Positions 1 to 60,172 of a stretch of DNA of 64,000 bases are shown piece after piece. Source of the DNA: an uncultured Eubacteriales bacterium. Lineage in GTDB: Bacteria > Acidobacteriota > Aminicenantia > Aminicenantales > Aminicenantaceae. How positions within the stretch are numbered: the first letter of the stretch is position 1; each line of letters opens with the position of its first letter. Position numbers and translations under genes: made by a program. The notes below the pieces were generated by a model that searched no databases, was not told where the DNA came from, and saw nothing but the letters and a program-made list of their open reading frames with translations. The DNA lies in the NCBI GenBank assembly GCA_964540205.1, contig CAZIMJ010000163.1, forward strand, positions 2,847 to 66,846, in the 5' to 3' direction.

Positions 1-221
1 GAGGCGCCGGCCCATGAAGTTGTGGTCGTCCACCACGAATGAGCCGCAACGAAGCAGATACGGTGAGATCAGCTCGCCCTAGGGGCAAAAATGTCGATTA
101 TATATAGATCCGACATAGAAAACGTAACGATTATTGAACTAATCCGAAAAATCAAAGCAATATATAAATATCATATTAGTTATAATAGGTATCGACATTT
201 TTTATGAATAGTCAAGGTTGA

Positions 222-4054: not shown

Positions 4055-4251
4055 TCCTAGGATTTTTCTGACAATTCTCGAATGTAGTGTATGATTTATC
4101 TCGCCAATGCCCCCCTGATCGAATTCATCACAAACTTTTTTCGTTGACATATTAAAGTATATTTAAATAATAGGTCATATAGAGAATTCAGAAAAGATAT
4201 CATGTGGATGCCAAATGTATGGCTTCCAAAATTGAGAAGGAGAGGTTAAGG

Positions 4252-9965: not shown

Positions 9966-10012
9966 CGAACGGTTCATTTGAGGAATGGATCCTATATAAA
10001 AGGAAGAGACTT

Positions 10013-10071
10013 AAAAAGGGACAGGCTACTTTTTTAATTACCCCTATAAAAAGGTAGCCTGTCCCCTTTTT
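10013..10071 (-). terminator. Intrinsic terminator hairpin downstream of the FtsX-permease gene
   Basis: The sequence reads aaaaagggacaggctac … gtagcctgtcccctttttatt. It has a 12-bp GC-rich stem flanked by A and T runs, immediately after the stop codon at 10070. Confidence 0.75.
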
Positions 10072-18115: not shown

Positions 18116-18175
18116 GATTTGTGGACTGTCACCTTTTTCCAGAGGTAAATATAAAAGTAGCCTGTCCTCTTTTAT

Positions 18176-23436: not shown

Positions 23437-26061
23437 TCATTCATACCGCAGCACATTGATGGGATTGGTAGATGCAACTTTTACCGTCTGTGAAGCGACT
23501 GTTCCCAGAGCCACTACGGCCGCCGCTCCTGTAGCGGCAATGAAAATCCAGGGAGACAGCGGTGCTTTATAGGCGAAATTCTGGAGCCACGTACTCATAG
23601 CAAAATAGGCGATCGGCCAGGCGAAAATACTGGAAATCAGCACCCACTTCGCAAACTCCTTGGAGAGGAGTACAAATATACGTGTACCCGATGCACCAAG
23701 CACTTTCCGGATCCCGATCTCTTTGGTTCGTTGCTCCGCTGTAAACGCAGACAAACCGAAAAGCCCTAAGCAGGCGATAGCCACAGCCAGCAAGCTGAAA
23801 ACATTAAACATGCTCCCTAGCCGGTACTCGGACTGGTATGCGCTGTCGAAGATATCGTCAAAGAAGCTGTAATCAATGGGATAATTCGGAGAGAATTTTC
23901 CCCATGTTTCTTTTAAGAAACCAAGAGTTCCAGGGATATTCCCTCCACGGATCTTGACAGACAAGTAATAAATATATCTCTGGTCCTTTCGATAGTAGAG
24001 ACACATGGGATCAATACCCCGATGGAGGGAGTGAAAATTAAAATTCTTCACAACACCCACAATCTGGCCCACATCACCCCACCAGATCTCAAAATCCCGT
24101 CCAACAGGCTGTTCCCATCCTAACGCGTTAACCAGGGATTCATTGAAGAGAAAGGAACTTTGGGCATCCGAGGGAAAATCTTTAGAAAAATTCCTCCCGT
24201 TCATAGTATCGATCCCATAGACATCCAAAAAATCCTCATCCACATAGCTCACATAAACATCAAAATAATCGAAATCCTCTGGAATACCCGGCCACTTCGG
24301 ACCCATCTGACTCTGTATATTGTTGGGAAGTGCATCCGTTGCGGTAGCTGCGATCACATTTGGATTGGCTTTTAATTCAGATTTGAAGGGATCAAGACTC
24401 TTTTTTATATCCGGGTCATGGAGCCTGATGACGACAATCTGGTCTTTCTCGTAGCCCACATCCTTGTTCTTGATAAAATCGAGCTGAAGCCGGACGACTA
24501 CAGCACCCACAATAAGCCCCACAGAAACTACAAATTGAAACACAACGAGGGCATTCCTCAGGCGCCTGCCCCCACGGCCGATTAGGATCTCCTTTTTTAA
24601 AACAAACGCCGGCCGGAAAGATGAGATCAAAAGGGCGGGATAGCTTCCGGCCAAGAAATTTATAAATCCCACAGCGATCAGCAGTCCAAAAAAAAGTGCA
24701 GGATTATTCAGCGAGGAAAAGCTCAAGTCTCGCTCTACAAAAGTGCTGAATGCGGGCAGCAAAATTTGAACAAGAACAAGGGCTAGAATCAACGCCAGAA
24801 TCAAAAAAATGAAGGATTCACCATAAAACTGCTTCACCAGATGATGGCGCAGAGCCCCCACCACTTTTCGGATCGCCACTTCTTTTCCGCGTTGGGTTGA
24901 GCAGGCCGTTGCCAGGTTCATGTAATTGATGCAGGCGATGATCAAAATGAGGAAAGCGATCGTAGAGAAAAGATAGATGTTCTTGATATTGTTGTTGGGT
25001 GCGAATTCCCCATCCAGGTCCGAATGGAGATGGATCGTAGTCATCGCCTGGAGGGATGGGCGACAGTAGCGCCGGCCGCCTGGCCATAGATCAGATTCGG
25101 CATACTTCCGATAGAGGCCTGGGATCTTCTGCTCCACAGCATGAGGGTCAGCGCCCTCATTTAATTGAACATATGAAACCGTCGCATGATTCTGCCATTT
25201 GGTTAAATCAAGTTCGGTGATTAACGCATAGGTTTGAAACGGGATGATGAGGTCCATGACAAAATGGGAATTCTGTGGCATGTTTTGGAGGATTCCAGTG
25301 ACCTTGAGATCGTAGGAATTCTCATAACGGATGACCTTACCCATGGGATTTTCCCGGCCAAAAATATGCGTGGCCATCTTTTGAGAGAGTACGATCGAGT
25401 AGGGATCCTTCAAAGCAGCATGGGACTGGCCTCTTTTCAGAGGAAGTGAAAACATCCGAAAGACCTGAGGCTCTGCAAAAATCACCTCGTTTTCTAAATA
25501 ATTCTGGTTGTCATAGTTTAAAAGAACATTTCTGTTGCGTGCAAACCGTGTGGCGAACTCCACTTCTGGAAATTCTTCCACCATTGTGGGGCCGAGCGGA
25601 GCCACTGTTCGTGTCATTGCCGTTTTCCCACCGTGAGTGTGCCTGGCAGGGAGTTCACTGGCCACGCGGTAGATACGGTGAGCATTTTCATGGTATTGAT
25701 CATAGCTCAGCTCAAACTGGACATAGATCATGATCAGAATGAAAAATGTCAGACCAATGGCAAGTCCGGCCACGTTGATGATGGTGAAGCTTTTTTGCCT
25801 TTTCATATGCCTTAAGGCTGTGATCAAATAATGCCTCGACATAATTGTGCCCCACTTTAACAGAAATTTGAGATAGGTGGGAATAGTTTTTAAGACCTGG
25901 ATTCGATACCAGCGTCTGGCTTTTGAAGATCCTCTCTCCTCCTCTATTTGATTAAACTCCTCCTCCAGATCACCAGCCCAAACAAACTCCTCATCATAGC
26001 GTCTCATGACCGAAAAGAGCCATCGGGCGAACCGGGGATGCTTTGCTTGCCCGGATTTCAT
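23437..26061 (-). CDS. FtsX/MacB-like ABC-transporter permease, paralog 2, with N-terminal cytoplasmic extension
   Basis: 874 aa with dual FtsX domains, ending …NPINVLRYE. Overlaps the upstream PadR gene by 4 nt (ATGA). Confidence 0.75.
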   Translation of the reverse strand: MKSGQAKHPRFARWLFSVMRRYDEEFVWAGDLEEEFNQIEEERGSSKARRWYRIQVLKTIPTYLKFLLKWGTIMSRHYLITALRHMKRQKSFTIINVAGLAIGLTFFILIMIYVQFELSYDQYHENAHRIYRVASELPARHTHGGKTAMTRTVAPLGPTMVEEFPEVEFATRFARNRNVLLNYDNQNYLENEVIFAEPQVFRMFSLPLKRGQSHAALKDPYSIVLSQKMATHIFGRENPMGKVIRYENSYDLKVTGILQNMPQNSHFVMDLIIPFQTYALITELDLTKWQNHATVSYVQLNEGADPHAVEQKIPGLYRKYAESDLWPGGRRYCRPSLQAMTTIHLHSDLDGEFAPNNNIKNIYLFSTIAFLILIIACINYMNLATACSTQRGKEVAIRKVVGALRHHLVKQFYGESFIFLILALILALVLVQILLPAFSTFVERDLSFSSLNNPALFFGLLIAVGFINFLAGSYPALLISSFRPAFVLKKEILIGRGGRRLRNALVVFQFVVSVGLIVGAVVVRLQLDFIKNKDVGYEKDQIVVIRLHDPDIKKSLDPFKSELKANPNVIAATATDALPNNIQSQMGPKWPGIPEDFDYFDVYVSYVDEDFLDVYGIDTMNGRNFSKDFPSDAQSSFLFNESLVNALGWEQPVGRDFEIWWGDVGQIVGVVKNFNFHSLHRGIDPMCLYYRKDQRYIYYLSVKIRGGNIPGTLGFLKETWGKFSPNYPIDYSFFDDIFDSAYQSEYRLGSMFNVFSLLAVAIACLGLFGLSAFTAEQRTKEIGIRKVLGASGTRIFVLLSKEFAKWVLISSIFAWPIAYFAMSTWLQNFAYKAPLSPWIFIAATGAAAVVALGTVASQTVKVASTNPINVLRYE

Positions 26062-42333: not shown

Positions 42334-42978
42334 CCTTTAGGAAAGCCGGTCGCCTATAGCTTCATGGAAGGAACTAATAGTTTTTTAGCTCACAAGCGTT
42401 CTTGTGATTTTCGCCACTAAGTTGGCGGTAGGATCCGGGCAGCGGACATATTCTGTCGTGACACCATCCCGGTCGATCACTTTTGCATATGGGGTGTCTT
42501 CATACTTCCACGGCAGCGTGACACCATTTTCTAAGAGACGTATAAAATCATGCATACTAGCTAAGAGCCAAGGACAGATCTTCCCCATATCTTTTGGGTA
42601 TTCAAACTTATTGGGAAACGATCCCTACATCAGTTAGGACCTATCCCCAATATTTCATTCAAGGTCCAGAAATGTGTATTTTGTTAGACTCCTCTCATAT
42701 TTTACCTCTTCTCTGCTTATAATTTCTTGGAATCGCGGCTCATGGAGCAGAGCATCATATAAAGACAGATTCATAAGGCTCAAATACGAATAGAATCCGA
42801 CATATTCACCTTTTTCACTTTGCGTATATTCATCAATGTAGTCCAGCGCTTTCTCTACGTCAAAAAAAAATCTTTAATAACGTTCGAAATTGTTGCAAAA
42901 TATTGAGACAATGAAAAAAGGGATCTCCAAAAACTTCCCTTTATTTCCTAATATTTTGCGATAAAAAGGAGGAAGACA

Positions 42979-47326: not shown

Positions 47327-47506
47327 TTACACAAATATTGATGCTTTAGCATTCTATTCTATTTACTTTTTTTGTAACACAGTTAATAAACGGCACATTC
47401 TACCACATCCAGCTTGAAAATCAATATTTTTTCCTTTTCTGAGATGAGAGCATGTCACAGAAAGACAAAATCATAGATACTCTGCGGGCAGCCCGCCGAG
47501 CCGATT

Positions 47507-47564
47507 AAAAAAATGGGACTGTCCCCTTTTTTTGTACGGTCCTTTCTCCGAAAGGACCGTAAAG
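47507..47564 (-). terminator. Intrinsic terminator (gggac/gtccc with A/T runs) followed by REP-like palindrome copy
   Basis: The terminator is aaaaaaatgggactgtccccttttttt. It is followed by gtacggtcctttctccgaaaggaccgtaaag, which has a 10-bp perfect stem. Confidence 0.7.
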
Positions 47565-47572
47565 AATCCTGT

Positions 47573-47971
47573 CTAAGGTTTCGGCATGAGGATGGCGCCG
47601 CCTGGGTACATTTCCACTGCGCGGAATCCCATCCTTTCCAGTTCTCCACAGAGTTCGATGCCGCGCACCGTGAGCCCTCTCATCGGACCCAGTGTTATCG
47701 GGAAAAAAGGGATCTTTCTTCTCCGCAATTCCAGGTCACAGACCCGATAATGTTCGCCGTTTCTATCTTCAATGGACTTTCTGCCGGGAGGGAGGTTTAA
47801 TGGTGCATCGATAGTAATGAGGTCTGGTTTTTCCTTCTCGGCGCACTCCAAAATATCAGCATCGGAATACGCTAGAAAAGTCTTTACCCTCAAGCCTCGA
47901 AGTACGCACATCCCCGTGGGACGATGCGGCACTCCCGCCAAATCAACGCCGAGAACACAGAATTCATTCAT
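47573..47971 (-). CDS. Hypothetical protein, RNase-H-like/DUF429-like N-terminal region (possibly truncated)
   Basis: 132 aa (VLGVDLAG…ITIDAPL). Resembles only the N-terminal half of the family. Confidence 0.3.
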   Translation of the reverse strand: MNEFCVLGVDLAGVPHRPTGMCVLRGLRVKTFLAYSDADILECAEKEKPDLITIDAPLNLPPGRKSIEDRNGEHYRVCDLELRRRKIPFFPITLGPMRGLTVRGIELCGELERMGFRAVEMYPGGAILMPKP

Positions 47972-48586
47972 TTAAAAATCGAAGGAATAGCCGATCCCGG
48001 CAAGGAATCGAATGCCTCCGAGGTTAACCTCTGTATCAAATGGCCTGACTACGAGCGGGACGGATTTCACCTCTGCTGATATGTATAATCTGTCAAACAC
48101 CCTCAGGTTGATCCCACCTGCAATAAAAGTAGTCCATTTGCTGTCATCGACTATTAAACGCGTAAAATCACTATCAATGTCCTGCTTATAGGTATAATAG
48201 CCCATACCTAATTTGACATATCCAACGAACGTGTGAAGCGGAAGGAACAGAATTCCCGAAAATTCCAGGCCCGTGACCGAAAGCGTGCTGTCCTCGTCAT
48301 AAAGGCCGACCTTTCCGCTTTCTTTGTAACCACCCTCATAGGCGATCTCAATACCTATGTTTCTGAAGGGGATCAGCCTCAAATAGGGGACGTAGACGTA
48401 ACCATCGCCATATGTCTCTTTTAAAATCTCATCCTGAACTTGGCGGAGTCCATAATTGAGACCTATCCCCACTTGAATGGCCTGGCTTGTTTGAACAACA
48501 CATCCAATCAAAACAAGAAATATAATCCCGTTTATCAATCTTTTTCGCATGAGCGATTCCTTTCTTCCGTTACTCCTAAATTTCAT
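47972..48586 (-). CDS. Outer-membrane beta-barrel protein (OmpW/porin-like small barrel)
   Basis: Signal peptide with alternating hydrophobic beta-strand pattern. C-terminal …GYSFDF. Confidence 0.5.
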   Translation of the reverse strand: MKFRSNGRKESLMRKRLINGIIFLVLIGCVVQTSQAIQVGIGLNYGLRQVQDEILKETYGDGYVYVPYLRLIPFRNIGIEIAYEGGYKESGKVGLYDEDSTLSVTGLEFSGILFLPLHTFVGYVKLGMGYYTYKQDIDSDFTRLIVDDSKWTTFIAGGINLRVFDRLYISAEVKSVPLVVRPFDTEVNLGGIRFLAGIGYSFDF

Positions 48587-48616
48587 GCAATTATCATTCT
48601 GTAAAATGAATTTGAA

Positions 48617-50407
48617 TCATTGGCTATAGGTGGCATAGACAGGAGCGCTCTCCTCACCTGATTCACTGACAGAAGTGATCTTGTAGATGTAAGCTTCCTC
48701 GAACAAAAGTCCGCGCCTATCGTATGTGAAAGTTTGGCCATCCAGTTCGGCAATCAAAACAAAATCATTACCTTGACTATCCGAGCGGCTCTCATAGAGG
48801 CGATAAGAGGCAACTGGTACCTCTTTTCCAGGGTTGGCGCTCCATGTGAGACGGTCAACAAATTGTGTAAAAAAAATATAATCGTTCGGAATTCTTTGTA
48901 CAGTAAAAGATTTTGGCGGGAAAATCTTTTTCACACCATAGAAGGCCGCTCCATAAGCATCGACGATGCCCCACCCATATTCATTATTGGGACTCGAGGA
49001 ATTATCGGCCGTAGATTTTATCGCATCCATGATGTCATAATTCGTCCATGTGGGGTTGATCTCCAGGATGAGTGCCGTGGCTCCGGCTGTTAAAGGGCAG
49101 GAGAAAGAGGTGCCGGCTACAGAATCGTAGATGTTGGAACCCCCGATCTCAACGGTGTAAACATCAGAGCCCTGAGCCATCACATCTGGCTTGATCCTTC
49201 CGTCTGCTGTAGGGCCCATAGAGCTGAATTCCACACGAATTCCTCTGGGATCGACGGCTCCTGCGGCAATGACATTGGGACTGTCGGAGGGGGCGATGAT
49301 GGTGTTGTCTGGGGGAGATGCCGGACCTTCATTCCCGGCTGAATTAACGATCAGGATGCCGCGGCTTGCGGCAATATTAGCCCCTATGGTTGTGATGGCT
49401 GTTTCCCCATCCATATCTTCTGAGGTGTAGCCTTCCTCTCCATGGGAGAATTCATAACGATAGCCCAGAGAGCTGCTGATGATGTCGGCTCCGAGGTCGT
49501 CCGCCCATTCGGCGCCTGCGACCCAGTGGTCTTCCTCGATGTGGCGCTCCCAATCGGTGTTTTCTGTTTTTCCAAGGATATAAGATGCTCCGTATGCGGG
49601 ACCGATTAATTCCCCGGGATAGTAACCCCCAATTGTGCCCAGCGTTTGAGTCCCGTGATTTCCCACACCCATCTGACCCTCCTCATCAAAAACATTGGGA
49701 TCATCGTTTACAAAATCCCATGTGGCTTGGATATCCAGATGATCCAGGGCCTGGTGAGCAAAGTTTTTGAAACCGGTATCAAGCATGCAGATCATAACAC
49801 CTTCGCCGCTATAGCCAAGGTCATGGAGGGTAGGCACATTGATCTGATTGAGCTGGGTGAAAGAAGGGCCGTAGTCGAATGCATGAGGTTCTGCGATTAG
49901 CGACGGTTTCTCTATGGATTGTGTATGAGTAAGGTGAGTAAGGTCTGGTTCACGGAAGTGAAAGGAACGGACACGATCGATCTTTTTTACAAAATCGAGG
50001 TCCGCAATTCTCTGCAAAGCGTAGCCATAGGCCTCAACTGAGACGGCGTTGAGCCATCGCGACCTATGACGGATTCGGATAGTGTGGATTTGTACGCTTT
50101 GGATGTATTTTTCTTCGACGGGCACGTCGTAAACATCGACGAGAGGAGTGTATTTAAGGTGCCGCAAACGACGTTTCAGGGTGCGAGGATTCAGAGAAGA
50201 CTGGACGGTCTGAATTTTTTTGTCGAGCTCAGAACCCTTGTCATTGAAAAAAATCCATACTGTGAATTGGGTTTGCTCGCCTTGATTCTGAATCATCATC
50301 TTCAGATTGGCGCTGATTTTCTCTTGGGAATCGGAGAGAACAAAAGAGGCCATAAAAAATGACAATGTGACTGCGATGAAAATTTTAATACGTGTTCTAT
50401 ATTTCAT
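48617..50407 (-). CDS. Secreted subtilisin-like serine protease (S8 family) with propeptide and C-terminal domain
   Basis: Catalytic triad motifs MLDTGF (Asp), GNHGTQT (His) and GTSFSCP (Ser). Signal peptide. Confidence 0.8.
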   Translation of the reverse strand: MKYRTRIKIFIAVTLSFFMASFVLSDSQEKISANLKMMIQNQGEQTQFTVWIFFNDKGSELDKKIQTVQSSLNPRTLKRRLRHLKYTPLVDVYDVPVEEKYIQSVQIHTIRIRHRSRWLNAVSVEAYGYALQRIADLDFVKKIDRVRSFHFREPDLTHLTHTQSIEKPSLIAEPHAFDYGPSFTQLNQINVPTLHDLGYSGEGVMICMLDTGFKNFAHQALDHLDIQATWDFVNDDPNVFDEEGQMGVGNHGTQTLGTIGGYYPGELIGPAYGASYILGKTENTDWERHIEEDHWVAGAEWADDLGADIISSSLGYRYEFSHGEEGYTSEDMDGETAITTIGANIAASRGILIVNSAGNEGPASPPDNTIIAPSDSPNVIAAGAVDPRGIRVEFSSMGPTADGRIKPDVMAQGSDVYTVEIGGSNIYDSVAGTSFSCPLTAGATALILEINPTWTNYDIMDAIKSTADNSSSPNNEYGWGIVDAYGAAFYGVKKIFPPKSFTVQRIPNDYIFFTQFVDRLTWSANPGKEVPVASYRLYESRSDSQGNDFVLIAELDGQTFTYDRRGLLFEEAYIYKITSVSESGEESAPVYATYSQ

Positions 50408-50547
50408 TTTTTAGCTCTGTCCTTAGTTTTGATAAGTCAGTGATTAACCTAGCAATTATTTAAACGGTCGGTGATGGTTAACTATAAATTGTAGTAAAAT
50501 AGTCGGAATTAGTCAAAAACAAAAAAAGGGGACTCTCCCTTTCTATT

Positions 50548-50592
50548 GTAGGGTCCGTTCCCCGAACGGACCGTTTGGGAAACGGTCCCTAC
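50548..50592. repeat. REP-like palindromic element copy (gtagggtccgttccccgaacggacc…ggtccctac) embedded inside a terminator hairpin
   Basis: Nested inverted repeats. Flanked by GGGGAC (50526-31) and GTCCCC (50613-18) stems with A and T runs. Confidence 0.7.
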
Positions 50593-50622
50593 ATCTCATA
50601 GAAAAGCACCCTGTCCCCTTTT

Positions 50623-52980
50623 TTATTCGTAGCGGAGGGAATCGATGGGGCTGGCAGTGGCCGCACGGATCGCTTGAAAGCTCACAGATAAGAAGGCGAC
50701 TATCAAGGCGATCGCCATGGCGGCAATAAAGATCAAGACACTCAAGCTCGTGCGGTAGGCGTAACTCTGCAGCCAGTTCTTCATCAGGAAATAGGCCACG
50801 GGCCAGGCAATAATGTTCGACACAAAAACGAGCAGAAAAAACTCTCTACAGAGCAGCATCGTAATGTTCGATACGGTGGCTCCCAGAACCTTCCGGATCC
50901 CCACTTCCTTAGTGCGCTGCTCAGATGTGAAAGAGGCCAAACCGAATAGCCCAAGGCAGGCGATAAAAACTGCCAAGGCCGCGAAATATTTTAGCAATGT
51001 TCCGATCGATTCCTCGCGCCGGTACATCTCGTCGAAATTCTCATCCAGAAAATAGTATTCGAAGGGATATGTGGGGATCACTCTTTTCCAAATGTTTTCA
51101 ATGGCCTCCAAAGATTTGGAGACATCCCCAGTTGGAATCCTGATGAGCATAATCCGGTTAGGCTCCTCGTATAAGGATAGAGCCAGAGGCTCGATCTTGT
51201 TCCGAATGGGTTGATAGTGCCAGTTCTCCATCACACCGATGATCGTGCCCTCCCTGCCGACAAAACTAAATCGTTCTCCGACCACGGATTCCTTGCCCAT
51301 CAACTTGGCCACTTCCTCATTGACGATAAATGCAGTTTTAAGATCTGAAGAATACTCCTTCGAAAAGCCTCGACCCTCTTTCATTTTGATCCTTAAAGTC
51401 TCGATAAAATCAAAATCGACAGAGTTGAAGCCGATGAGCGTTGAGAAATTAGGATCTTTGCCATCCCAATCAGCACCAGCGGAGTTACTTCCGATTTGAG
51501 ATGGCAGCTGACCGGTGGCTGTCACATTCATAATATGCGAATCCTTGACCAACTCTGTTTTTAAAGTATCATAGACTTTTTGAACATCTTCTCTGAGAGG
51601 AATATACACCAGATGCTCCCTATCCCAACCCAATCGGTGATTTTTCATATAAGTTAACTGCTGGTAAACAACAACTGTCCCAATGATCAGCAAGATCGAG
51701 AGTGAGAATTGGACTACAACCAGAACCTTCCTGAACAGGGAACTTGCGGCCCCGGATTTAATAGCCCCCCTGATCACTTTGACCGGCTGGAAAGCCGATA
51801 AATACAGGGCTGGATAACTGCCGGCAACCAAACCCGTGAAGAGCGTGATCGCAGCCAATCCGATAAGGATCGTTCCTATCCCACCAACATTCCATGAGAG
51901 TTCCTTATCAGCAAATTTACTGAATGCTGGCAAGATCATTGTTACAACTCCTGCCGCGAGAACTAAGGAGATAAATGCAAAAACGACTGATTCCCCATAA
52001 AACTGCCGAATGAGATGGCTTTTTAGAGCACCAACGACTTTCCTCATCCCTACTTCTTTAGCCCTGTTGGCGGAACGGGCCGTGGACAGGTTCATGAAGT
52101 TGATGCATGCGATCAACAAAACGAAAAGAGCGATAATGGAAAAGATATAGACGTACTGAATTGCTCCCGGGCTTTTCTCGTATCCAAAATAGGAATGGAG
52201 ATGAATTCTCGTGAAGGGCATGAGCATGAGGTCAGTCACACTGTCGGATACCTTTGTCTTGATAAAGCCGAAGATTTTTTCATTCACTTGTTCCATTGTC
52301 GAGTTCGGATTGAGCTGCACATATGTCCCTATGGAATTGCTGCCGAATTCCTGATCGGTTCTTCCTATTTTCTCCAAAAAGGCATAAGGAACTGCAATTT
52401 CAAACTGCAAGGACGAATTGTGGGGGATGTTCTCCATCACCCCACTCACGGTAAATTCGTGTGTATTATTCACAGTGATCACTTTTCCGAGCGGGTCTTC
52501 ATCTCCAAAATATTTTTGTGCGAGATCTTCATCTAAAACGAGCGAATAAGGTGAGCTTAAAGCTCTGTCTTTGTCCCCTTTTATGAATGGAAAGTTGAAC
52601 ATCTGGAAAAAAGATGGATCAACGGCTCTTATGCCGTATTCAAAAAAAGCATTTTCTCCGTATCGGAACAAAAGACCCCCTGACCAGACATAACGTGTGG
52701 CATCAATGATTTCCGGGATCTCCTCTACGAGTGCCGGGGCCAAAGGATAGGGGGTGACTCTCACATGAAACATTCTTCCAGAGTAATGCTGATCTTCCTC
52801 GACACGGTAAAGGTGGGGTGCATTTTCATGAAATTTATCATAGCTCAACTCATCCAACACCCAGATTGAGATGAGGAGACAACAAGCCATCCCGATAGCC
52901 AGACCTGTGATGTTGATCAGGGAATACCCTTTGTGTTTTCTGATGTTTCTTAATATAACCTTTAGATAGTTTTTAAACAT
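50623..52980 (-). CDS. FtsX/MacB-like ABC-transporter permease, paralog 3
   Basis: Trimmed to ATG at 52980 (MFKNYLKVILRNIRKHK…). Dual FtsX domains. C-terminus …PIDSLRYE. Confidence 0.75.
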   Translation of the reverse strand: MFKNYLKVILRNIRKHKGYSLINITGLAIGMACCLLISIWVLDELSYDKFHENAPHLYRVEEDQHYSGRMFHVRVTPYPLAPALVEEIPEIIDATRYVWSGGLLFRYGENAFFEYGIRAVDPSFFQMFNFPFIKGDKDRALSSPYSLVLDEDLAQKYFGDEDPLGKVITVNNTHEFTVSGVMENIPHNSSLQFEIAVPYAFLEKIGRTDQEFGSNSIGTYVQLNPNSTMEQVNEKIFGFIKTKVSDSVTDLMLMPFTRIHLHSYFGYEKSPGAIQYVYIFSIIALFVLLIACINFMNLSTARSANRAKEVGMRKVVGALKSHLIRQFYGESVVFAFISLVLAAGVVTMILPAFSKFADKELSWNVGGIGTILIGLAAITLFTGLVAGSYPALYLSAFQPVKVIRGAIKSGAASSLFRKVLVVVQFSLSILLIIGTVVVYQQLTYMKNHRLGWDREHLVYIPLREDVQKVYDTLKTELVKDSHIMNVTATGQLPSQIGSNSAGADWDGKDPNFSTLIGFNSVDFDFIETLRIKMKEGRGFSKEYSSDLKTAFIVNEEVAKLMGKESVVGERFSFVGREGTIIGVMENWHYQPIRNKIEPLALSLYEEPNRIMLIRIPTGDVSKSLEAIENIWKRVIPTYPFEYYFLDENFDEMYRREESIGTLLKYFAALAVFIACLGLFGLASFTSEQRTKEVGIRKVLGATVSNITMLLCREFFLLVFVSNIIAWPVAYFLMKNWLQSYAYRTSLSVLIFIAAMAIALIVAFLSVSFQAIRAATASPIDSLRYE

Positions 52981-53048
52981 AGCCACGCTCCAATACATAG
53001 AATTTGATAGGAATGATGGGATGGATTTGAAAATCTGTCCCCATTTTT

Positions 53049-55475
53049 TTATTCGTAGCGGAGGGAATCGATGGGATTGGCGATGGCTGCTTTTATGGAC
53101 TGATAACTTACTGTGAAGAGAGCGACTCCGATCGTAACGATCCCCGATAAAATAAAAGCCCAAATGTCGAGATCTATCCTATAAGCAAAGTTCTGAAGCC
53201 AACTGTTCATGGCAAAATAAGCCAAAGGCCATGCAATCACAGCGGCTATCAAAACCCATTTTGTGAACTCTTTGGTCAGAAGCACAACGATGTTGCCCAC
53301 TGTGGCTCCGACGACTTTCCGTACACCGATCTCCTTGGTTCGGATCTCGGCGGAATACGCAGACAGCCCGAAAAGACCCAAACAAGAAATAAATATCGCC
53401 AACAGGGAAAATGCCTGAAAAATGTTGTTCACTCTGTCTTCTCCCTCATAGAGACGGTTGAGGTGCTCGTCCACAAACGTGTACATGAACAGCGTCTCCG
53501 GGGCAATCTCTTTGGCTTTCATCTCAATAAACTCCAAAACATCCGCCGTGTTGTTTCCCTGAAATTTGACCAACAGATATCCTGCCCAAGCCGGATTGTA
53601 CTCCAGGACCAAGGGTTCGATGATGTTATGCAGGGAGGCAAAATTAAAATCTTTAACAACACCCACGATCTCAGCATTGGTCCCTCGGAAATTGGATCCC
53701 ATTTTGCCCACAGGCTCTTTCAATTCGAGGGCTTGAACCGCTGTCTCGTTGAGGATGAATTCCGGTTTATACTCAGCTCGCCGTGTGAAATTTCTGCCAT
53801 CTTCCAATTGGATATTGAGGATCTCCAGAAAATTCTCATCAACACGCAAGTACCTCATGCTGGGGAGATCTTTATCCTCAGGCGTTCCTTCAGGTCTGAG
53901 GTTCTCTACACTGAATCTGTCGCCGGGCAGGGTGGAAATAACTGTAACCCCTGTTATGGCCGGATTCCTCAAAAATTCTGTCTTCAAGACCTCTGTGTTC
54001 TGAACGATATTGCGGCGGAGGCCACCATACAAGTCGATGGCCACAAGCTTGTCCTTCTCGAATCCAAGGTTCATATTCTGGAATAGATCCAGTTGCTTAT
54101 ATATTGTGATCGTACTGAAAATCATAAATATAGAAACTATAAATTGAAAGATCACCAGTCCCTTTCTAACCATCGTGACTGAAGATCCGGAATCTCTCAA
54201 GTTTTTGAGCGTATTTACCGGCTTGAATTTCGACATGAAGAAAGCCGGGTACACACCGGCCAAAGTCCCCACAAGAACAATGATCAAGACTAGAACACCG
54301 ATGTTATCTGGAGTCAAAATACGCACAAAGCTCAGGTCTTTTCCAGCCAGCTGATTGTAAAACGGAAGCGTGATGTCAAAAATCATTAGAGCAAACACCG
54401 CTGCGATCAAAGACATGACGTACGACTCGCCCAAAAACTGCTTCTGCAATTGATGACGATATGCTCCCAAGACTTTCCTGACACCGACCTCCTTCATCCG
54501 TTTGAATGCCTGAGCAGTTGCAATGTTGATAAAATTCACTCCTGCGATCAGCAGTATAAACAGAGCCACACAGGCAAATACATAGACATATATGATGTTG
54601 CTGTTGGGTCCCATCTCTTGTTCCAGGCGAGAAAAAAGATGAATATCCGTGATGGGTTGAAGATGCTGTTTTGTCCGAGCCAAGATCTCTTCCCGTGTCC
54701 CAAATTCTTGGTAAAACCGGGCCGTAAAATCTGGCATCTTTGCCCTTACGGCATCGAGACTTTGGTTCTCGCGAATGAGCACATAGGTATAAAACCAAGC
54801 CCAACCACGGCTGACCATCCAATCTTCAGCACCGCGTTCCTTCATTGTTTTGTACATTGTTGACATCGAAACGAGATAATCAAACTGCCAATGCGTGTTG
54901 AAAGGGACGTCCTCGACGACGCCTGTCACTTTATAAAGGGCTTGCGCACTGTCGTCAGAGATCGTTTTCCCCAGAGGATCTTCATCCCCGAAATACCTTT
55001 TTGCCATGCTTTTGGTCAAAACTACAGTGTTGACATCTACCAGGGCGTTTTTTGGATTTCCTCTGATAAATTTGAGATCAAAAACTTCGATGGTTGCAGG
55101 ATCAGAAAAAAATCCTCCTTTTTCTTCAAAACGCCTGGGTTCGCCAACTTTGGGAGTGTAGTTCAACACATTGGAGTACCTGTAGGCCAACCGAGTTGCG
55201 ACTTGGATCTCCGGGATCTCTTCTCCGATCTCAAGAGCGTGTAGGGGAGAGACCACGGCCCAGTGGAGAGATCCCTCCTCCAGGCCTTCATTGGTGACCC
55301 TGTATATGCGGTCTGCCTTAGGCCAGCTCCGATCATAGCTCAGCTCTTCTTTCACATGGAAAAGGATGAGCAAACTGCATGCGATCCCTAAGGCAAGACC
55401 GGTAATGTTGAGGATACTGTTCAGCTTTTGTTTGAAAATATTCCTTATGGCGATTTTAAAATAATTCCTTAGCAT
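53049..55475 (-). CDS. FtsX/MacB-like ABC-transporter permease, paralog 4 (tandem with paralog 3)
   Basis: 808 aa starting MLRNYFKIAIRNIFKQK. C-terminus …PIDSLRYE. Its 3' terminal ~28 nt and downstream terminator half are identical to paralog 3. Confidence 0.75.
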   Translation of the reverse strand: MLRNYFKIAIRNIFKQKLNSILNITGLALGIACSLLILFHVKEELSYDRSWPKADRIYRVTNEGLEEGSLHWAVVSPLHALEIGEEIPEIQVATRLAYRYSNVLNYTPKVGEPRRFEEKGGFFSDPATIEVFDLKFIRGNPKNALVDVNTVVLTKSMAKRYFGDEDPLGKTISDDSAQALYKVTGVVEDVPFNTHWQFDYLVSMSTMYKTMKERGAEDWMVSRGWAWFYTYVLIRENQSLDAVRAKMPDFTARFYQEFGTREEILARTKQHLQPITDIHLFSRLEQEMGPNSNIIYVYVFACVALFILLIAGVNFINIATAQAFKRMKEVGVRKVLGAYRHQLQKQFLGESYVMSLIAAVFALMIFDITLPFYNQLAGKDLSFVRILTPDNIGVLVLIIVLVGTLAGVYPAFFMSKFKPVNTLKNLRDSGSSVTMVRKGLVIFQFIVSIFMIFSTITIYKQLDLFQNMNLGFEKDKLVAIDLYGGLRRNIVQNTEVLKTEFLRNPAITGVTVISTLPGDRFSVENLRPEGTPEDKDLPSMRYLRVDENFLEILNIQLEDGRNFTRRAEYKPEFILNETAVQALELKEPVGKMGSNFRGTNAEIVGVVKDFNFASLHNIIEPLVLEYNPAWAGYLLVKFQGNNTADVLEFIEMKAKEIAPETLFMYTFVDEHLNRLYEGEDRVNNIFQAFSLLAIFISCLGLFGLSAYSAEIRTKEIGVRKVVGATVGNIVVLLTKEFTKWVLIAAVIAWPLAYFAMNSWLQNFAYRIDLDIWAFILSGIVTIGVALFTVSYQSIKAAIANPIDSLRYE

Positions 55476-55873
55476 ATTCTTTGCCTTTCAGGAGGCCTTC
55501 AAATTCATGTGCAAATTTTAGCGGACATATGTATTTCAAATAAACTTCAAGGGCTCTATCTGGTCAAAACTCAATGCAATAATCATACCAACAGAAAAGG
55601 TCTGAGATGGAAGGCCAATCTCTGAAGATTGCGGTGAAACATGTACGTTTTCGCAGCATAGAGTGTGCGATTCCGGACACATTGCCCCATGGAAATTAAA
55701 GAAAACTCCACGCTTTCTCCTACTCTTATAAACGAGAGGGAACACTTTATGGTTTACAGATAATTCGGATCGCCAATAAAGGCTGATTCTTCACGCTGGA
55801 TATGTTATTGTATACGGCACATAGTATTTAATTTATGAGGGATTTTTTATTAAAAAAAAGGAGGACTTCGAAT

Positions 55874-57592
55874 ATGTCTAAAAAGCGCCTAGTCTATTTC
55901 TGTCTGACCGTTATATGTATTTCGCTCTTATGTTTGAGTTGCGCTAAAAAAGAGGAGCCCGCAGACCTTGTGTTGATGCAGGGAAAAATCGTGACCGTGG
56001 ATGATGCCAAGCCTGAGTTCGAAGCGCTGGCAGTAAGAGGGAATACCATCGTAGCCTTAGGAACCAACACGGAAATCGAGCCGTATATTGGCGATTCAAC
56101 AAAGGTGATCGACCTCAAGGGAAATCTGGCCATCCCCGGCTTTACCGATGCGCACGCCCATTTCACCGGCATTGGACAGGCAAAAATGGGCTTGGAATTG
56201 ATGCCAGTGAAAAATTGGGAAGAGGTTATCGCTATGGTTGCAGAAGCTGTGAAAGATGCTCAGCCGGGCGAATGGATCCGTGGAAGAGGCTGGCACCAGG
56301 AAAAGTGGGATAAAACACCCGAGCCCAATGTTGATGGACTTCCTCTCCATCATGAGTTGAGCAAGGTTTCACCCGAAAATCCCGTTTTGCTGACTCATGC
56401 CAGTGGTCATGCCTCGTTTGCCAATGCGAAGGCGATGGAGTTGGCGGGAATCACAAGGAACACACCTGCTCCCGAGGGTGGAGAAATCGTTAAAGATACC
56501 AAGGGTAATCCCATCGGGATGTTCCGGGAGACAGGCCAACGCTTGCTGAGGGATGCGTATTACGCATGGCACGAGACATTAGGCGCCGCACAGATCACAG
56601 CTGAACGTCAGAAAATAATCGAATTGGCCGACCAAGAATGCCTCTCAAAGGGAATCACGTCCGTCCATGATCCCGGATCTCCGTTTGAAACAATCGATCT
56701 GTTCAAAGAAACAGTGGAACAGGGAAAACTCGGGGTGCGTCTTTATGTGATGATTAGGGATAGCAATGAACGCATAAGGGAGAAAATCGGCGAATACAGG
56801 ATTATGGGTATGGACGACAATCACCTGACAGTCCGATCCATCAAGCGGTCGATCGATGGTGCATTGGGCCCGCATGGAGCTTGGCTCTTAGAACCCTATG
56901 AATCTCTCCCGACAAGCGTTGGATTGAACACTTCGACCGTAGAGAGCGTCACGGAAACAGCCCAGATCGCCATCGAAAACGACTTTCAGCTCAATGTCCA
57001 CTGCATCGGAGATAGGGCAAACAGGGAGACTCTCGATATTTTCGAGGAGGCGTTCACCGCACATCCTGATAAAAAGGACCTGAGGTGGAGGATTGAGCAT
57101 GCACAGCATCTGCATCCCTCCGACATACCCCGCTTCGCTCAATTGGGAGTGATCCCATCGATGCAGGGCATCCACTGTACATCGGATGGCCCCTATGTAC
57201 TCAAGCGATTGGGAAAACAACGCGCAGAAGAAGGTGCCTATGTCTGGAGGAAACTCATGGACACAGGAGTGGTCATCTGTAATGGAACCGATGCTCCTGT
57301 CGAAGATGTGGATCCCATTCCATGTTTTTACGCGACTGTCACACGGATAATGAAGAATGGACAAGCATTCTACCCAGACCAGAAGATGAGCCGAAAGGAG
57401 GCGTTACGCTCCTACACCATCAATTGCGCTTATGCCTCTTTCCAGGAGGATATTCTCGGATCTCTGACACCGGGCAAATTAGCGGATATCACGGTTCTCT
57501 CAAAAGACATCATGACTGTCCCTGATGAGGAAATTCTTGATGCTGAAGTGCTATACACCATTGTCGGCGGAAAAGTGTTATACCAGAAATAA
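55874..57592 (+). CDS. Metal-dependent amidohydrolase (Amidohydro_3-like) lipoprotein
   Basis: RBS aaggagga followed by ATG at 55874. Lipobox LLCLSC. H-x-H motif FTDAHAHF. Confidence 0.75.
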   Translation: MSKKRLVYFCLTVICISLLCLSCAKKEEPADLVLMQGKIVTVDDAKPEFEALAVRGNTIVALGTNTEIEPYIGDSTKVIDLKGNLAIPGFTDAHAHFTGIGQAKMGLELMPVKNWEEVIAMVAEAVKDAQPGEWIRGRGWHQEKWDKTPEPNVDGLPLHHELSKVSPENPVLLTHASGHASFANAKAMELAGITRNTPAPEGGEIVKDTKGNPIGMFRETGQRLLRDAYYAWHETLGAAQITAERQKIIELADQECLSKGITSVHDPGSPFETIDLFKETVEQGKLGVRLYVMIRDSNERIREKIGEYRIMGMDDNHLTVRSIKRSIDGALGPHGAWLLEPYESLPTSVGLNTSTVESVTETAQIAIENDFQLNVHCIGDRANRETLDIFEEAFTAHPDKKDLRWRIEHAQHLHPSDIPRFAQLGVIPSMQGIHCTSDGPYVLKRLGKQRAEEGAYVWRKLMDTGVVICNGTDAPVEDVDPIPCFYATVTRIMKNGQAFYPDQKMSRKEALRSYTINCAYASFQEDILGSLTPGKLADITVLSKDIMTVPDEEILDAEVLYTIVGGKVLYQK

Positions 57593-57646
57593 ACTTCCTT
57601 GCTCTTTATATCGAATCCGTCTTCCTAAACGGAACATGGTTTTGAT

Positions 57647-57672
57647 GTAGGGTCTGTTCCCCGAACGGTCTG
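57647..57672. repeat. REP-like palindromic element copy
   Basis: gatgtagggtctgttccccgaacggtctg. Confidence 0.65.
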
Positions 57673-57737
57673 TTTAGGAAAATGGGTACAGGCACCTCAT
57701 TCCATATCGGAATATCGGAGCCAGTCCCCATTTCGAT

Positions 57738-57763
57738 GTAGGGTCTGTTCCCTGAACGGACCG
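57738..57763. repeat. REP-like palindromic element copy
   Basis: gatgtagggtctgttccctgaacggaccg. Confidence 0.65.
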
Positions 57764-58378
57764 AACCGATTTAGAGTTCGTTCCCTAATCGAACCATTTA
57801 TGAAACGGCCCCGACACCTCTGATTTTCGGATTACGCATGTATCGATAAGGCCCTAGTACCACTAATATTTTTGGCGGATTATATGGTGCTCGAGTCCCC
57901 TTTTTGTTCAGCTGATGGTCTCAGAAGGAGCCTTGGAAAGTTATTCTCGACAAGCACGTCTAATAGTATATAGAATTCGGTTTAGTGGCTTGTTTAATAT
58001 TGTGTCGTGGTAGTGGATGTGTTATATTCGATGGTTAAATTGCCTGAATTATTCATAAAAAATGTCGATACTTATTACAACTAAACCAATTTCAACAATT
58101 TACTGTGTTCATTCATCCTACCCATCTGATAATTCCTTCTTCAATGTCCCTTCCATTTATAATCGACATTTTTTACTCTTCGGGCGAGCTGATCTCACTA
58201 CAAAGCCTTCGTTGTAGCCCGGGTAGGTTGGGTCGGCTCGCAGTAGTTCACTACAGCTTCGTGGGCCACTTCCTTGACTTTGCGACCTTAATGTTAGGGT
58301 GGGGCGGGTCGGATCGTGCATAATCCAGGATAATTGCAAATAATATGAATAAAATTTATCACAATTAGGAGGTTGTGG

Positions 58379-60172
58379 ATGAAAAAATCAATGATTTTGA
58401 TCGCAGCTTTATGTTTTTTAGTCTTTTCGACTGTGATCGGACAACAAGCGAAAGAAGAAGAGAAACCTGATCCAATGGCCAATTTTTCCCTGGTTGATGA
58501 GATCGAACCCGTACCTGAAGACGTGAAAGTGGGATTTGAATCCATCACGGGAAAAGATGCCGTCACGTATCTTAAATTTATCTCCGATGATCTCCTCGAG
58601 GGAAGAGACACCGGGAGTGATGGATATGATATTGCCGCCCTTTATGGGGCGACCATGTTCGAGCTCTGGGGCCTCAAGCCTGCAGGAGATAAAATCAAAC
58701 CCCGGATGGATATGCGCCAAATGATGATGGGCGGACAAATGGCGCAAAGCTCTAAAAGAAGCTATTTTCAGAATATTGCTATGCGGGAAACATTAGAAAC
58801 GGACGGAATGGCCATTGCCGCGTGGCAGAAAGGCCAGCAGAAAAAGACCCGGGCTTTCTCTCCGAATATCGATTATAACTATTTTGCCTCTGGATCACAA
58901 TCTCTGACGGCTCCCGTGGTCTTCGTGGGATATGGCATCCAAGAAGACTCCCTGAAATTCGACGAGTACAAGAACCTGGACGTTAAGGGTAAGTTCGTCA
59001 TGATGATTTCTGAAGCACCCGGAAAAGGCGATCCCGATTCTCCATTCAACAAGGGCGAGTTGAAAGCGAAATACTACCCTCAGCGCCGCCGCATGAGGCG
59101 GATGACAGATCCAAAAACCAACCTGGCTACCGATTTGGGGGCATTGGGTGTCCTGTTGGTTGAAAACTCACCCCAAGACAATCCAGATGCAGCACGCCAA
59201 GCTCTTGACAGACAAAAAATTTATGATGATCAACCCATAATCCCCGGTGAACGCCGAAGAATCGCGCTCATGGAGAGCAGAGGACCTCGCATGCCCTGGG
59301 ATTCAGTTGCAACAATCCGGGTCTCCAGAGAGATGGCAAACCAGATCCTGGATTATGTTGATCAGGATGTGGATACTCTCAAAGGGAAGATCGAAAAAAC
59401 ACTCCAGCCCCAATCTATGCCACTTCAGGGAGTGACATTCACCGTTAAGAGCACAGCTAAAACCAAACTCATCAACAGCATGAATGTTCTAGGATACATC
59501 GAAGGCTCTGATCCGGAACTGAAAAAGGAAGCGATCGTGATCGGCGGCCATTTGGACCACCTGGGAATGCGGGGTGATTATATTTACAACGGCGCTGACG
59601 ATGACGGCTCCGGTTCTGTCGGTGTTTTGGAGATCGCAGAAGCCTTTGCCAAAAATCCTGTTAAGCCCAAAAGGTCGATCGTGTTCGCTCTCTGGACGGG
59701 TGAAGAAAAAGGACTCCTCGGCTCAAGGTATTATGTGGCCCATCCCTTCATCGAAAAAACCTATTGTAACCTGAACCTCGATATGATCAGCCGAGAGTAC
59801 GAAAAGAGCCGGCTAGCAATGATGGCCCGGATGTTCGGGGAAAACGTTCCCAAGGAGGCATTGGAAAAAATCGATGTAAAGAAATTTGTCAGTCTCTCCT
59901 ACGACGCCGACACACCCGAGTTAGGAACAATCATAAGGGAAAATAACAACTATGTCGGCCTTCATTTAAGCATGCGTGCATCCAGTGAAGGCATGGGTGG
60001 AAGCGACCACGCACCCTTTGCCATGAACAACATCCCTTGGGCATTTTTCAATGCAGCTATGACTGAAGACTATCACCAGCCCACAGATTCGGTGGAAAAA
60101 GTGAGCCCCAAATTGATGGAAAAGATTATTCGCATCACTTATCTCACAGCACATTCATTAGCGAATAATTGA
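58379..60172 (+). CDS. M28-family aminopeptidase with PA domain, secreted
   Basis: RBS aggagg followed by ATG at 58379. Metal-ligand motifs GGHLDHLG, YNGADDDGSG and WTGEEKGLLGS. Confidence 0.75.
   Translation: MKKSMILIAALCFLVFSTVIGQQAKEEEKPDPMANFSLVDEIEPVPEDVKVGFESITGKDAVTYLKFISDDLLEGRDTGSDGYDIAALYGATMFELWGLKPAGDKIKPRMDMRQMMMGGQMAQSSKRSYFQNIAMRETLETDGMAIAAWQKGQQKKTRAFSPNIDYNYFASGSQSLTAPVVFVGYGIQEDSLKFDEYKNLDVKGKFVMMISEAPGKGDPDSPFNKGELKAKYYPQRRRMRRMTDPKTNLATDLGALGVLLVENSPQDNPDAARQALDRQKIYDDQPIIPGERRRIALMESRGPRMPWDSVATIRVSREMANQILDYVDQDVDTLKGKIEKTLQPQSMPLQGVTFTVKSTAKTKLINSMNVLGYIEGSDPELKKEAIVIGGHLDHLGMRGDYIYNGADDDGSGSVGVLEIAEAFAKNPVKPKRSIVFALWTGEEKGLLGSRYYVAHPFIEKTYCNLNLDMISREYEKSRLAMMARMFGENVPKEALEKIDVKKFVSLSYDADTPELGTIIRENNNYVGLHLSMRASSEGMGGSDHAPFAMNNIPWAFFNAAMTEDYHQPTDSVEKVSPKLMEKIIRITYLTAHSLANN

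Follow-up and report, generated by a model that had tools for sequence, protein, structure and literature searches.

To our knowledge, systems comprising repetitive extragenic palindromic (REP) elements, REP doublets forming hairpins (REPINs) and REP-associated tyrosine transposases (RAYTs) have been studied almost entirely in Gammaproteobacteria. The choice of sites by new REP copies is still unsettled. This report concerns a family of REP-like palindromes in a 64,000 nt stretch of contig CAZIMJ010000163.1 (the window), from an uncultured bacterium of the Aminicenantaceae. It is highly probable that the palindromes are REP/REPIN elements. The fuller reading, in which they form a GTAG-type REP/REPIN family with a hairpin cognate to a RAYT, and in which copies land 3' of T-tracts and then decay, is also considered probable.

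What counts as a REP, a RAYT and a REPIN, and the need for GTAG, are taken here from earlier work (PMC8266576, PMC3116915, PMC3733652). In the GTAG REP superfamily (Di Nocera et al. 2013), a GTAG tag is present at one end of stems of 5–13 bp that display complementary changes. These repeats are found as singletons, head-head dimers with GTAG outside and tandem groups, are occasionally intragenic, and are associated with transposase genes (PMC3733652). Some GTAG families are within larger palindromes, e.g., GTAG-15 of A. variabilis and GTAG-23 of T. roseum, and the dimer partners in O. terrae are 1–2 bp apart (PMC3733652). In the Pseudomonas REPINs (Bertels and Rainey 2011), the inverted doublet is the replicating unit and singlets are decayed remnants; there is excision/insertion polymorphism, and the RAYT gene is flanked by REPs (PMC3116915). 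TnpA-REP of E. coli (PDB 4ER8; PMC3479197) is an HUH/Y1 enzyme that processes single-stranded REP hairpins and needs GTAG, and its recognition of the REP is described as that of a folded hairpin plus GTAG (PMC8266576). The enzymes of E. coli, S. maltophilia and Marinomonas are the only RAYTs known to bind and cleave their cognate single-stranded REPs (PMC8266576). In the library searched, no paper was found that links Aminicenantes with REPs, and the REP papers cited above do not name this taxon.

The window was searched, with up to three mismatches, for the consensus gtagggtcYgttccccgaacggWcYg of an earlier reading made from the letters alone (the sequence-only reading). There are four matches, at 50548–50573 (+), 50567–50592 (-), 57647–57672 (+) and 57738–57763 (+), compared with none in 100 dinucleotide shuffles, and a shorter core additionally picks up positions 47538–47558. 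Scored over the window with a covariance model derived from 150 variants of the family, the four intact units reach 30–42 bits (E 4e-9 to 5e-6). Each intact unit is 25 nt in length and has a GTAG head extended by GG, followed by a 9-bp stem with a 3-nt loop, i.e., a short palindrome in the range of 20–50 nt preceded by GTAG. The window also carries at least four decayed copies. The sequence-only reading had listed four copies, beginning at 47534, 50548, 57647 and 57738. The sequences are found there, but the one at 50548–50592 consists of two overlapping inverted units and the one at 47534 is diverged. All copies are intergenic and 3' of genes (DUF429, MacB permease and amidohydrolase), as that reading had described.

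The intact REPIN-like doublet is 45 bp (positions 50548–50592, without strand). Unit A is at positions 50548–50572 on the plus strand (GTAGGGTCCGTTCCCCGAACGGACC) and unit B at positions 50568–50592 on the minus strand (GTAGGGACCGTTTCCCAAACGGTCC); they score 42 and 38.9 bits. The two units are inverted, with the GTAG heads outward, and their tails share a 5 nt overlap. As single-stranded DNA the 45-mer folds into a single long hairpin (-15.3 kcal/mol, z -3.7). This folding of the inverted doublet as one hairpin is a REPIN property, and the window singlets are degraded copies. When compared by the text descriptions of the families, the repeats have all of the listed features of the GTAG superfamily (tag, stem, dimers, tandem groups, transposase association and palindrome insertion) and differ in the 5 nt overlap of the partners, which gives the 45-bp unit. 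The extended GTAGGG head and the CCC loop, fixed in nearly all copies examined, are particular to this family. In Pseudomonas REPINs the 16-mers are kept apart by a spacer of 71 or 110 bp; the Aminicenantes doublet has no spacer. The REPs of E. coli (group 2) are long with a bulge, and the palindromes here are short and perfect, like those of group 3. Elements of this kind are well known; the host phylum, the overlapping 45-bp doublet, the one-sided T-tract and the multi-phylum REP core are what is particular to the family.

Recurrence beyond the window, on which the sequence-only reading had staked its claim, was found in a scan with the 22-nt core GTAGGGWCYGTTYCCYRAACGG that took one genome per species and counted public metagenome-assembled genomes (MAGs) in 8-kb blocks; the counts are lower bounds. 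The core is present in at least 110 blocks. These comprise at least 33 blocks in CAZXJE, which is labelled 'Eubacteriales' but is in fact a close Aminicenantes relative, at least 24 in JAGLRY (Aminicenantes), at least 16 in JBATYS (Aminicenantaceae), at least seven in WTAW (Aminicenantes), at least four in CAYOSH ('Eubacteriales') and at least 26 in other genomes of Aminicenantes (one block), Nitrospirota, 'Deltaproteobacteria'/Desulfobacteraceae/Syntrophaceae and Omnitrophota. Many mostly intergenic copies per genome, as in GTAG-type REP families, are thus found in relatives such as CAZXJE. Among the matches listed, exact 45-bp doublets account for 34 sites and single units or tandem arrays for another 90, and a 45-mer identical to the window doublet is present at many loci of five MAGs. 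The genes beside the listed copies are not orthologues of window genes, and 59 of 67 doublets fall outside stop-free frames of at least 150 amino acids (aa). No match to the core was found in 2.9 million viral contigs. The sequence-only reading described such elements as often lineage-specific; the REP core here is not, as it is common to several phyla.

Two window proteins have their best named homologues in Candidatus Aminicenantes/Aminicenantaceae MAGs (81–93% identity). Exact look-ups of three window proteins gave no match for two; the third led to a 2.3-kb contig of JGI metagenome 3300031653, whose sequence equals that of part of the window and adds no empty site. CAZXJE has a syntenic locus (L198, CAZXJE010000030.1) with an amidohydrolase that is 92% identical in aa sequence to that of the window, and is therefore a close relative of the window organism. 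The MAGs CAZXJE and CAYOSH, both deposited as 'uncultured Eubacteriales bacterium', have the same repeat families. The 'Eubacteriales' label of such MAGs looks wrong, and at least CAZXJE belongs to the Aminicenantes lineage.

A larger, MITE-like (miniature inverted-repeat transposable element) composite repeat of ~300 nt, with inverted ends of its own (CATTTCCAAATC...GTGATG), is not present in the window and is found at 23 loci (L021, L025, L041, L058, L075, L095 and 17 more). The 45-bp doublet is at its centre, in constant relative orientation. This suggests that REPINs are also spread by hitch-hiking within a larger repeat.

The stem of the repeat was analyzed in units gathered by head and loop only (GTAGGG-N7-CCC-N7), with pairing not a criterion. 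There are 436 such units and 164 distinct 25-mers, of which the 150 commonest were used for the covariation test; the invariance of head and loop reflects the selection pattern and hence is no test. The 9-bp stem has 87.4% of cells paired, compared with 72.8% in shuffles. Double changes are present in 209 cells (55 in shuffles) and affect seven of the nine pairs. The covariation score is 0.455, compared with 0.19 in shuffles and at most 0.12 in slid controls, and none of 500 shuffles reaches the real values. Such covariation shows selection on the hairpin, as would be expected if a protein recognises the folded form together with a fixed GTAG. Compensatory stem changes, together with the GTAG(GG) head, the short palindrome and the inverted doublets with heads outward, bear out the REP-like nature that had been proposed for the sequences.

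The doublet at 50548–50592 is enclosed by a host terminator. The left arm of the terminator hairpin is at positions 50519–50547 (AAAAAAAGGGGACTCTCCCTTTCTATT; no strand), and its T-rich end adjoins the A end of the doublet. The right arm is at positions 50593–50625 (ATCTCATAGAAAAGCACCCTGTCCCCTTTTTT; no strand), directly past the stop codon of a MacB/FtsX permease gene at 50623–53163 (-). Folded together, terminator and doublet give a single extended stem with a T-run behind it; the energy is -30.8 kcal/mol (z -7.8) to -31.9 kcal/mol, and z lies between about -7 and -8. Since this fold is kept, termination is probably retained with the doublet inserted. The orthologous site, between an S8 protease gene and the MacB gene, was compared in syntenic relatives whose amidohydrolase is 86–93% identical to that of the window, and it displays three states. 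It is empty in L193/L194, where a perfect 24-bp hairpin GGGGACTGTCACCTATTTTT...AAAAATAGGTGACAGTCCCC is present (-25.9 kcal/mol; L193 6820–6880). It is filled in orientation A>B in the window and in L201, with identical context, and filled in orientation B>A, at the same apex, in L195/L196. These empty and filled sites uphold the earlier proposal that the 50548 copy is within the loop of a pre-existing terminator. The REP content 3' of the amidohydrolase gene is also different in every relative. Insertion/excision polymorphism of the kind seen in REPIN-RAYT systems is therefore present, in the form of empty, filled and inverted alleles and of the amidohydrolase region. Both this polymorphism and the folding of the doublet as one hairpin are shared with the Pseudomonas REPINs.

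A paralogous permease gene at 10070–12361 has the same gene-proximal terminator arm (positions 10008–10075) and no REP. The REP units were also considered as intrinsic terminators in their own right, and this was rejected: the T-runs belong to the host hairpins at 50519–50625 and 47506–47532. A simple terminator scanner considers only loops of up to 8 nt, so that long composite hairpins are missed by it. The family explains odd long hairpins at gene 3' ends in the annotation of Aminicenantes MAGs.

Separately, the window has two occurrences, at 10008–10075 and 18131–18174, of a palindromic terminator of 62 bp, AAAAAGGGACAGGCTAC...GTAGCCTGTCCCCTTTTT. In CAZXJE it is 95–98% identical at non-orthologous places (L017 365–424, L078 161–213 and L108). 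Because of this recurrence, the terminators themselves look like a repeat family with a common GGGGAC-N-GTCCCC core.

The other copies in the window are decayed to different degrees. The element at 57647–57690 (+) is a decayed doublet with 89% identity to the intact doublet over 36 nt. Its first unit (GTAGGGTCTGTTCCCCGAACGGTCT, 31.8 bits) has a T-T mismatch in the stem and its degraded second half (GTTTAGGAAAATGGGTAC) extends after 57671 to ~57690; L198 holds an orthologous copy. At positions 57738–57762 (+) there is a single intact unit with a 9-pair stem (GTAGGGTCTGTTCCCTGAACGGACC, 30.3 bits), which is the first of a head-to-tail pair. The second unit of the pair, at 57772–57796 (+), is decayed (TAGAGTTCGTTCCCTAATCGAACC), with 72% identity and a residual stem of 5 bp. 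Tandem arrays that resemble this pair are found in L015, L055 and L081. An old diverged unit at 47534–47561 (+), placed between the terminator at 47506–47532 and the stop codon of the DUF429 gene, is 72% identical and has a mutated head (GTACGG, with GTAC in place of GTAG; GTACGGTCCTTTCTCCGAAAGGACCGTA; 13.6 bits, E 0.13). Its stem is still perfect owing to a compensatory change from G-C to T-A. Orthologues with better preserved heads are present in L192 (1298) and in L195 (4142), the latter with a GTAGGG head and an imperfect stem, GTAGGGTCCATTCCACGAACAGAC. Since L195 carries this sequence at the orthologous position, the 47534 copy is a true member of the family. The segment around it is wholly absent from L193. 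Finally, a truncated remnant of a B unit is at 42604–42628 (-), where ATGTAGGGATCGTTTCCCAA is followed by unrelated sequence (16.2 bits, E 0.027). The sequence-only reading had each copy fold as a hairpin. This is found for the doublet and for the stems at 57738 and 47534, but the stem at 57647 is degraded and folds weakly (-2 kcal/mol).

The copies are separated by 3014, 7099, 91 and 33 nt and have mixed orientations. A CRISPR array (clustered regularly interspaced short palindromic repeats) was rejected on the basis of these irregular spacings and mixed orientations. The window has no Rfam match at gathering thresholds, and a search in E-value mode over 57500–58450 gave only a chance match to a small nucleolar RNA.

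Gene remnants are found near two of these sites. A remnant of a PEMT-family (phospholipid methyltransferase) gene is at 57816–57902 (-) and has 76% identity over 29 aa to the intact gene in L192. The gene is intact in L192, L197 and L201, and the REPs at 57647 and 57738 are in the decaying stretch. At positions 47452–47508 (+), 18 codons (MSQKDKIIDTLRAARRAD) are left over from a gene's 3' end, and downstream of them the terminator and the old REP persist. This gene encodes 164 aa in L195, and in L192 it is a full radical-SAM gene of 337 aa.

Transposase genes are associated with the same repeats in other lineages. Locus L002, from a Deltaproteobacteria MAG, has an open reading frame (ORF) of 160 aa (positions 4180–4659) with an HUH motif (PDHLHML) and the motif YILNNPVRKG, and it is bracketed by REPs (GTAGGGTCCGTTCCCCGAACGG). 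The protein matches Pfam Y1_Tnp (E 4e-11), and with 110.8 bits it exceeds the cut-off of 80 for NF047646, the NCBIfam model of REP-associated tyrosine transposases. With the IS200 equivalog it scores 23.9 bits, which is below the cut-off of 55. Its sole match in PDB is 4ER8, TnpA-REP of E. coli (E 4e-8). It has 378 homologues, many of which are named RayT by JGI. The clade, which is known from sequence alone, matches 4ER8 and NF047646; its members have low sequence identity with TnpA-REP of E. coli.

When metagenomes were scanned with 25 aligned RAYT homologues, 80 loci were recovered, of which 59 have at least 160 nt on each side. A GTAGGG hairpin is within 150 nt of the RAYT gene upstream in 43 of the 59 loci, downstream in 40 and on both sides in 34. 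Units of the window type (22-nt pattern) are present at nine RAYT loci (L116, L119, L129, L138, L146, L147, L162, L163 and L165). RAYT genes bracketed by such REPs are found in several other lineages (L002, L071, L146, L147, L162 and others), and identical REP sequence is directly beside RAYT genes in Desulfobacterota and Nitrospirota contigs. L162 and the REP-bearing block L020 come from one Nitrospirota lineage (95% aa identity). The REP form common to this RAYT clade is GTAGGG-NNNGTT-CCCC-GAACNNN. More distant RAYTs (37–40% identity) are flanked by GTAGGGCAAGGCTTTAGCCTTGC. RAYTs that are 60–75% identical, with the same REP core, are found in MAGs of several phyla. This well-populated clade, whose genes are bracketed by covarying hairpins, makes target choice and the co-evolution of enzyme and hairpin testable in combination with the 45-bp unit, the terminator alleles and the T-tract preference.

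Eight of the 59 RAYT genes have a REP unit in frame within their own coding sequence; its translation is GAFGERTL, in a loop that follows the HUH motif (L121 2925(-), L123 564(-), L135, L137, L142 and L145 are included). Some RAYT homologues (P0057, P0033) have tandem ERTLQ repeats at this loop.

Searches of the window and of all loci for a RAYT by tblastn, by a regular expression for the motifs and by a hidden Markov model of 120 homologues matched only L002 and L071. Among the 80 metagenomic RAYT loci, no convincing Aminicenantes RAYT was found with the 45-mer, the GGGGAC motif, GC content and protein similarity as markers; L162 was a candidate and proved to be from Nitrospirota. All-against-all clustering of ORFs revealed no other recurrent transposase near the repeats, and the top cluster is a stop-free frame across the composite repeat.

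The flanks of the doublet were compared in 28 independent contexts. In context the doublet is (A)T/GTAGGG...CCCTAC/A(T), with positions -2/-1 A/T in 61%/96% and positions +1/+2 A/T in 100%/71%. At the A end, positions -8 to -2 are 55% T (background 26%, p 6e-15), and the B end has only 36% A. A run of at least four T adjoins the A end in 11 of the 28 contexts, and copies directly after terminator T-tracts are found in L006, L011 and L062, among others. A GGGGAC/GTCCCC terminator motif is within 45 nt of 22% of doublets, compared with 1% of random positions, which are mostly coding DNA and inflate this enrichment.

These results are consistent with the following model. The replicative form in this Aminicenantes lineage would be the compact 45-bp head-out doublet, with a unit of GTAGGG, a 9-bp stem and a CCC loop. 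REPs of this type would serve as cognate substrates for a single clade of REP-associated tyrosine (HUH/Y1) transposases, whose genes are enclosed by these REPs in other lineages, an arrangement known as a REPtron. The mechanism, in analogy to that of E. coli TnpA-REP and IS200/IS605, would be a single-stranded one, in which the enzyme binds the folded hairpin and the GTAG head and cuts and rejoins single-stranded DNA. We infer that a RAYT is present and active in the genome of the window. New copies would insert so that the A end comes to lie just 3' of a T-rich tract, by target choice as opposed to purifying selection, which would explain the copies in or next to terminators. An oriented insertion 3' of a T-run would also explain both orientations at the orthologous MacB terminator. 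Intrinsic terminators would supply T-tracts on both strands and extrudable hairpins, so that copies would accumulate in their loops or after their T-runs. There they may be harmless, as the hairpin would be extended and not destroyed, and older copies would decay into singlets and fragments.

In IS200/IS605 elements (IS608, ISDra2), a Y1 HUH transposase acts with subterminal hairpins of single-stranded DNA, and insertion is oriented and takes place immediately 3' of a short target. That the flank is T-rich on just one side of the doublet resembles this oriented insertion. The repeats here differ in that they are gene-less and in that the RAYT is below the IS200 equivalog cut-off. The target would be a loose T-run, in contrast to the defined tetra- or pentanucleotide of IS200/IS605. 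Homing to T-tracts, if true, would be a sequence-defined target rule for a REP family. The family further offers a compact 45-bp replicative unit, natural empty, filled and inverted alleles of a terminator, and a measurable one-sided T-tract preference.

Several observations weigh against this model. The window has only four intact units, all inside 10 kb. A search with a hidden Markov model yielded no RAYT homologue from the window or from the ~0.5 Mb of Aminicenantes-type DNA that surrounds REP copies, which is a small and biased part of each genome, and this is a difference from the Pseudomonas systems. The partner RAYT/transposase that the sequence-only reading had envisaged is thus found only in part: NF047646 genes flanked by identical REP are present in other lineages, but none is in the Aminicenantes DNA examined. 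The flanks by the insertion site are too diverged for exact junctions, and the B>A orientation in L195 could be the result of inversion of the palindrome rather than of a second insertion. The T-rich flank could reflect tolerance of insertion rather than target choice, and a target duplication of 2 bp could account for the AT...AT flanks, which would point to another transposition chemistry. A clearly complementary flanking palindrome (score of at least 10) encloses only two of 61 doublets. A rule that the element always inserts into hairpin loops was therefore rejected, as flank complementarity is not generally raised. Insertion into a hairpin target, proposed from the 50548 copy, stands at the MacB terminator with its empty and filled alleles and fails as a general rule; adjacency to a T-run is the rule and insertion into a hairpin loop the exception.

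The lack of a RAYT in the ~0.5 Mb examined would also fit an explanation in which the copies are relics, i.e., an ancestral RAYT spread the family and was since lost, and the copies are now neutral or have been exapted as hairpins that extend terminators. The decayed window copies at 47534, 57647 (second half), 57772 and 42604 are in keeping with this, and the loss of the GTAG head at 47534 with a perfect stem fits selection for the hairpin itself. However, the 45-mer has dozens of copies that agree in every base, both inside single MAGs and from one MAG to another, and relatives that are only 7–12% apart in protein sequence differ in presence, absence or orientation of the element, both of which imply recent activity. 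In addition, RAYT genes are usually single-copy (PMC8266576) and the sampled DNA is a small, biased part of each genome. A relic family is therefore unlikely, and a REP/REPIN family with recent activity is favoured.

The flanks bear on another explanation, a MITE moved by a DDE-type transposase, with GTAGGG...CCCTAC as terminal inverted repeats and AT as a 2-bp target-site duplication. The doublet is a near-perfect palindrome with AT on both sides, and the ~300 nt composite, itself MITE-like with inverted ends, holds it centrally at 23 loci. The AT/AT flanks are equally readable as a 2-nt extension of the palindrome. Single units share the anatomy of GTAG plus hairpin and flank Y1 transposase genes in 34–43 of 59 loci, and the stem covaries with the head and loop fixed, as would be expected for recognition of a folded hairpin and not of a duplex inverted repeat. 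With no recurrent transposase ORF near the copies, this explanation is very improbable.

In another explanation, of which the part on terminators of paralogous genes had been named by the sequence-only reading itself, the copies would be immobile: conserved terminators of an ordinary kind, or regulatory palindromes, that came down with paralogous genes. It could draw on the 3' ends and T-runs shared by several MacB/FtsX paralogues of the window, one of which has a copy downstream, but it is refuted to the point of being scarcely credible by the unrelated upstream genes (DUF429, MacB, amidohydrolase), the terminator arm without REP at paralogue 10070–12361, the orthologous L193/L194 terminator without the element, the lack of T-runs after REP units and the presence of the 45-mer in dozens of unrelated contexts.

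The distribution of the REP core allows a further, tentative proposal within the REP/REPIN interpretation. It is possible that one RAYT-REP system (RAYTs 60–75% identical; core GTAGGG-WCCGTTCCCCGAACGGW-CC) has moved horizontally among sediment/groundwater phyla (Aminicenantes, Nitrospirota, Desulfobacterota and Omnitrophota) and in Aminicenantes became a spacer-less 45-bp REPIN that homes to terminator T-tracts, maybe without a resident RAYT. The Pseudomonas systems are described as vertically inherited within the lineage, whereas the REP core and the RAYTs here span several phyla. Horizontal spread, if true, would contrast with the strictly vertical picture of REPIN-RAYT systems in Pseudomonas and enterobacteria.

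The window also has a second dispersed element of ~310 nt at positions 58043–58351, just upstream of an M28 peptidase gene. It is bounded by the inverted repeats CCTGAATTATTCA and TGCATAATCCAGG, has internal AAAAATGTCGAT...ATCGACATTTTT repeats, and has no Rfam match. A truncated second copy is at window positions 1–217 (-). The element is inverted in L195 (12134–12457) and absent from L192, L193, L197, L198, L199 and L201. An 18-nt motif of the element is found at 11 loci; L192 and L201 have it upstream of the amidohydrolase gene. The element may represent a mobile or invertible promoter/leader cassette.

There are four paralogous genes of MacB/FtsX-type ABC permeases of ~800 aa in the window, at 10070–12361, 23437–26061, 50623–53163 and 53049–55475, all on the minus strand. 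Two of them are adjacent in the window, where L193 and L195 have only one.

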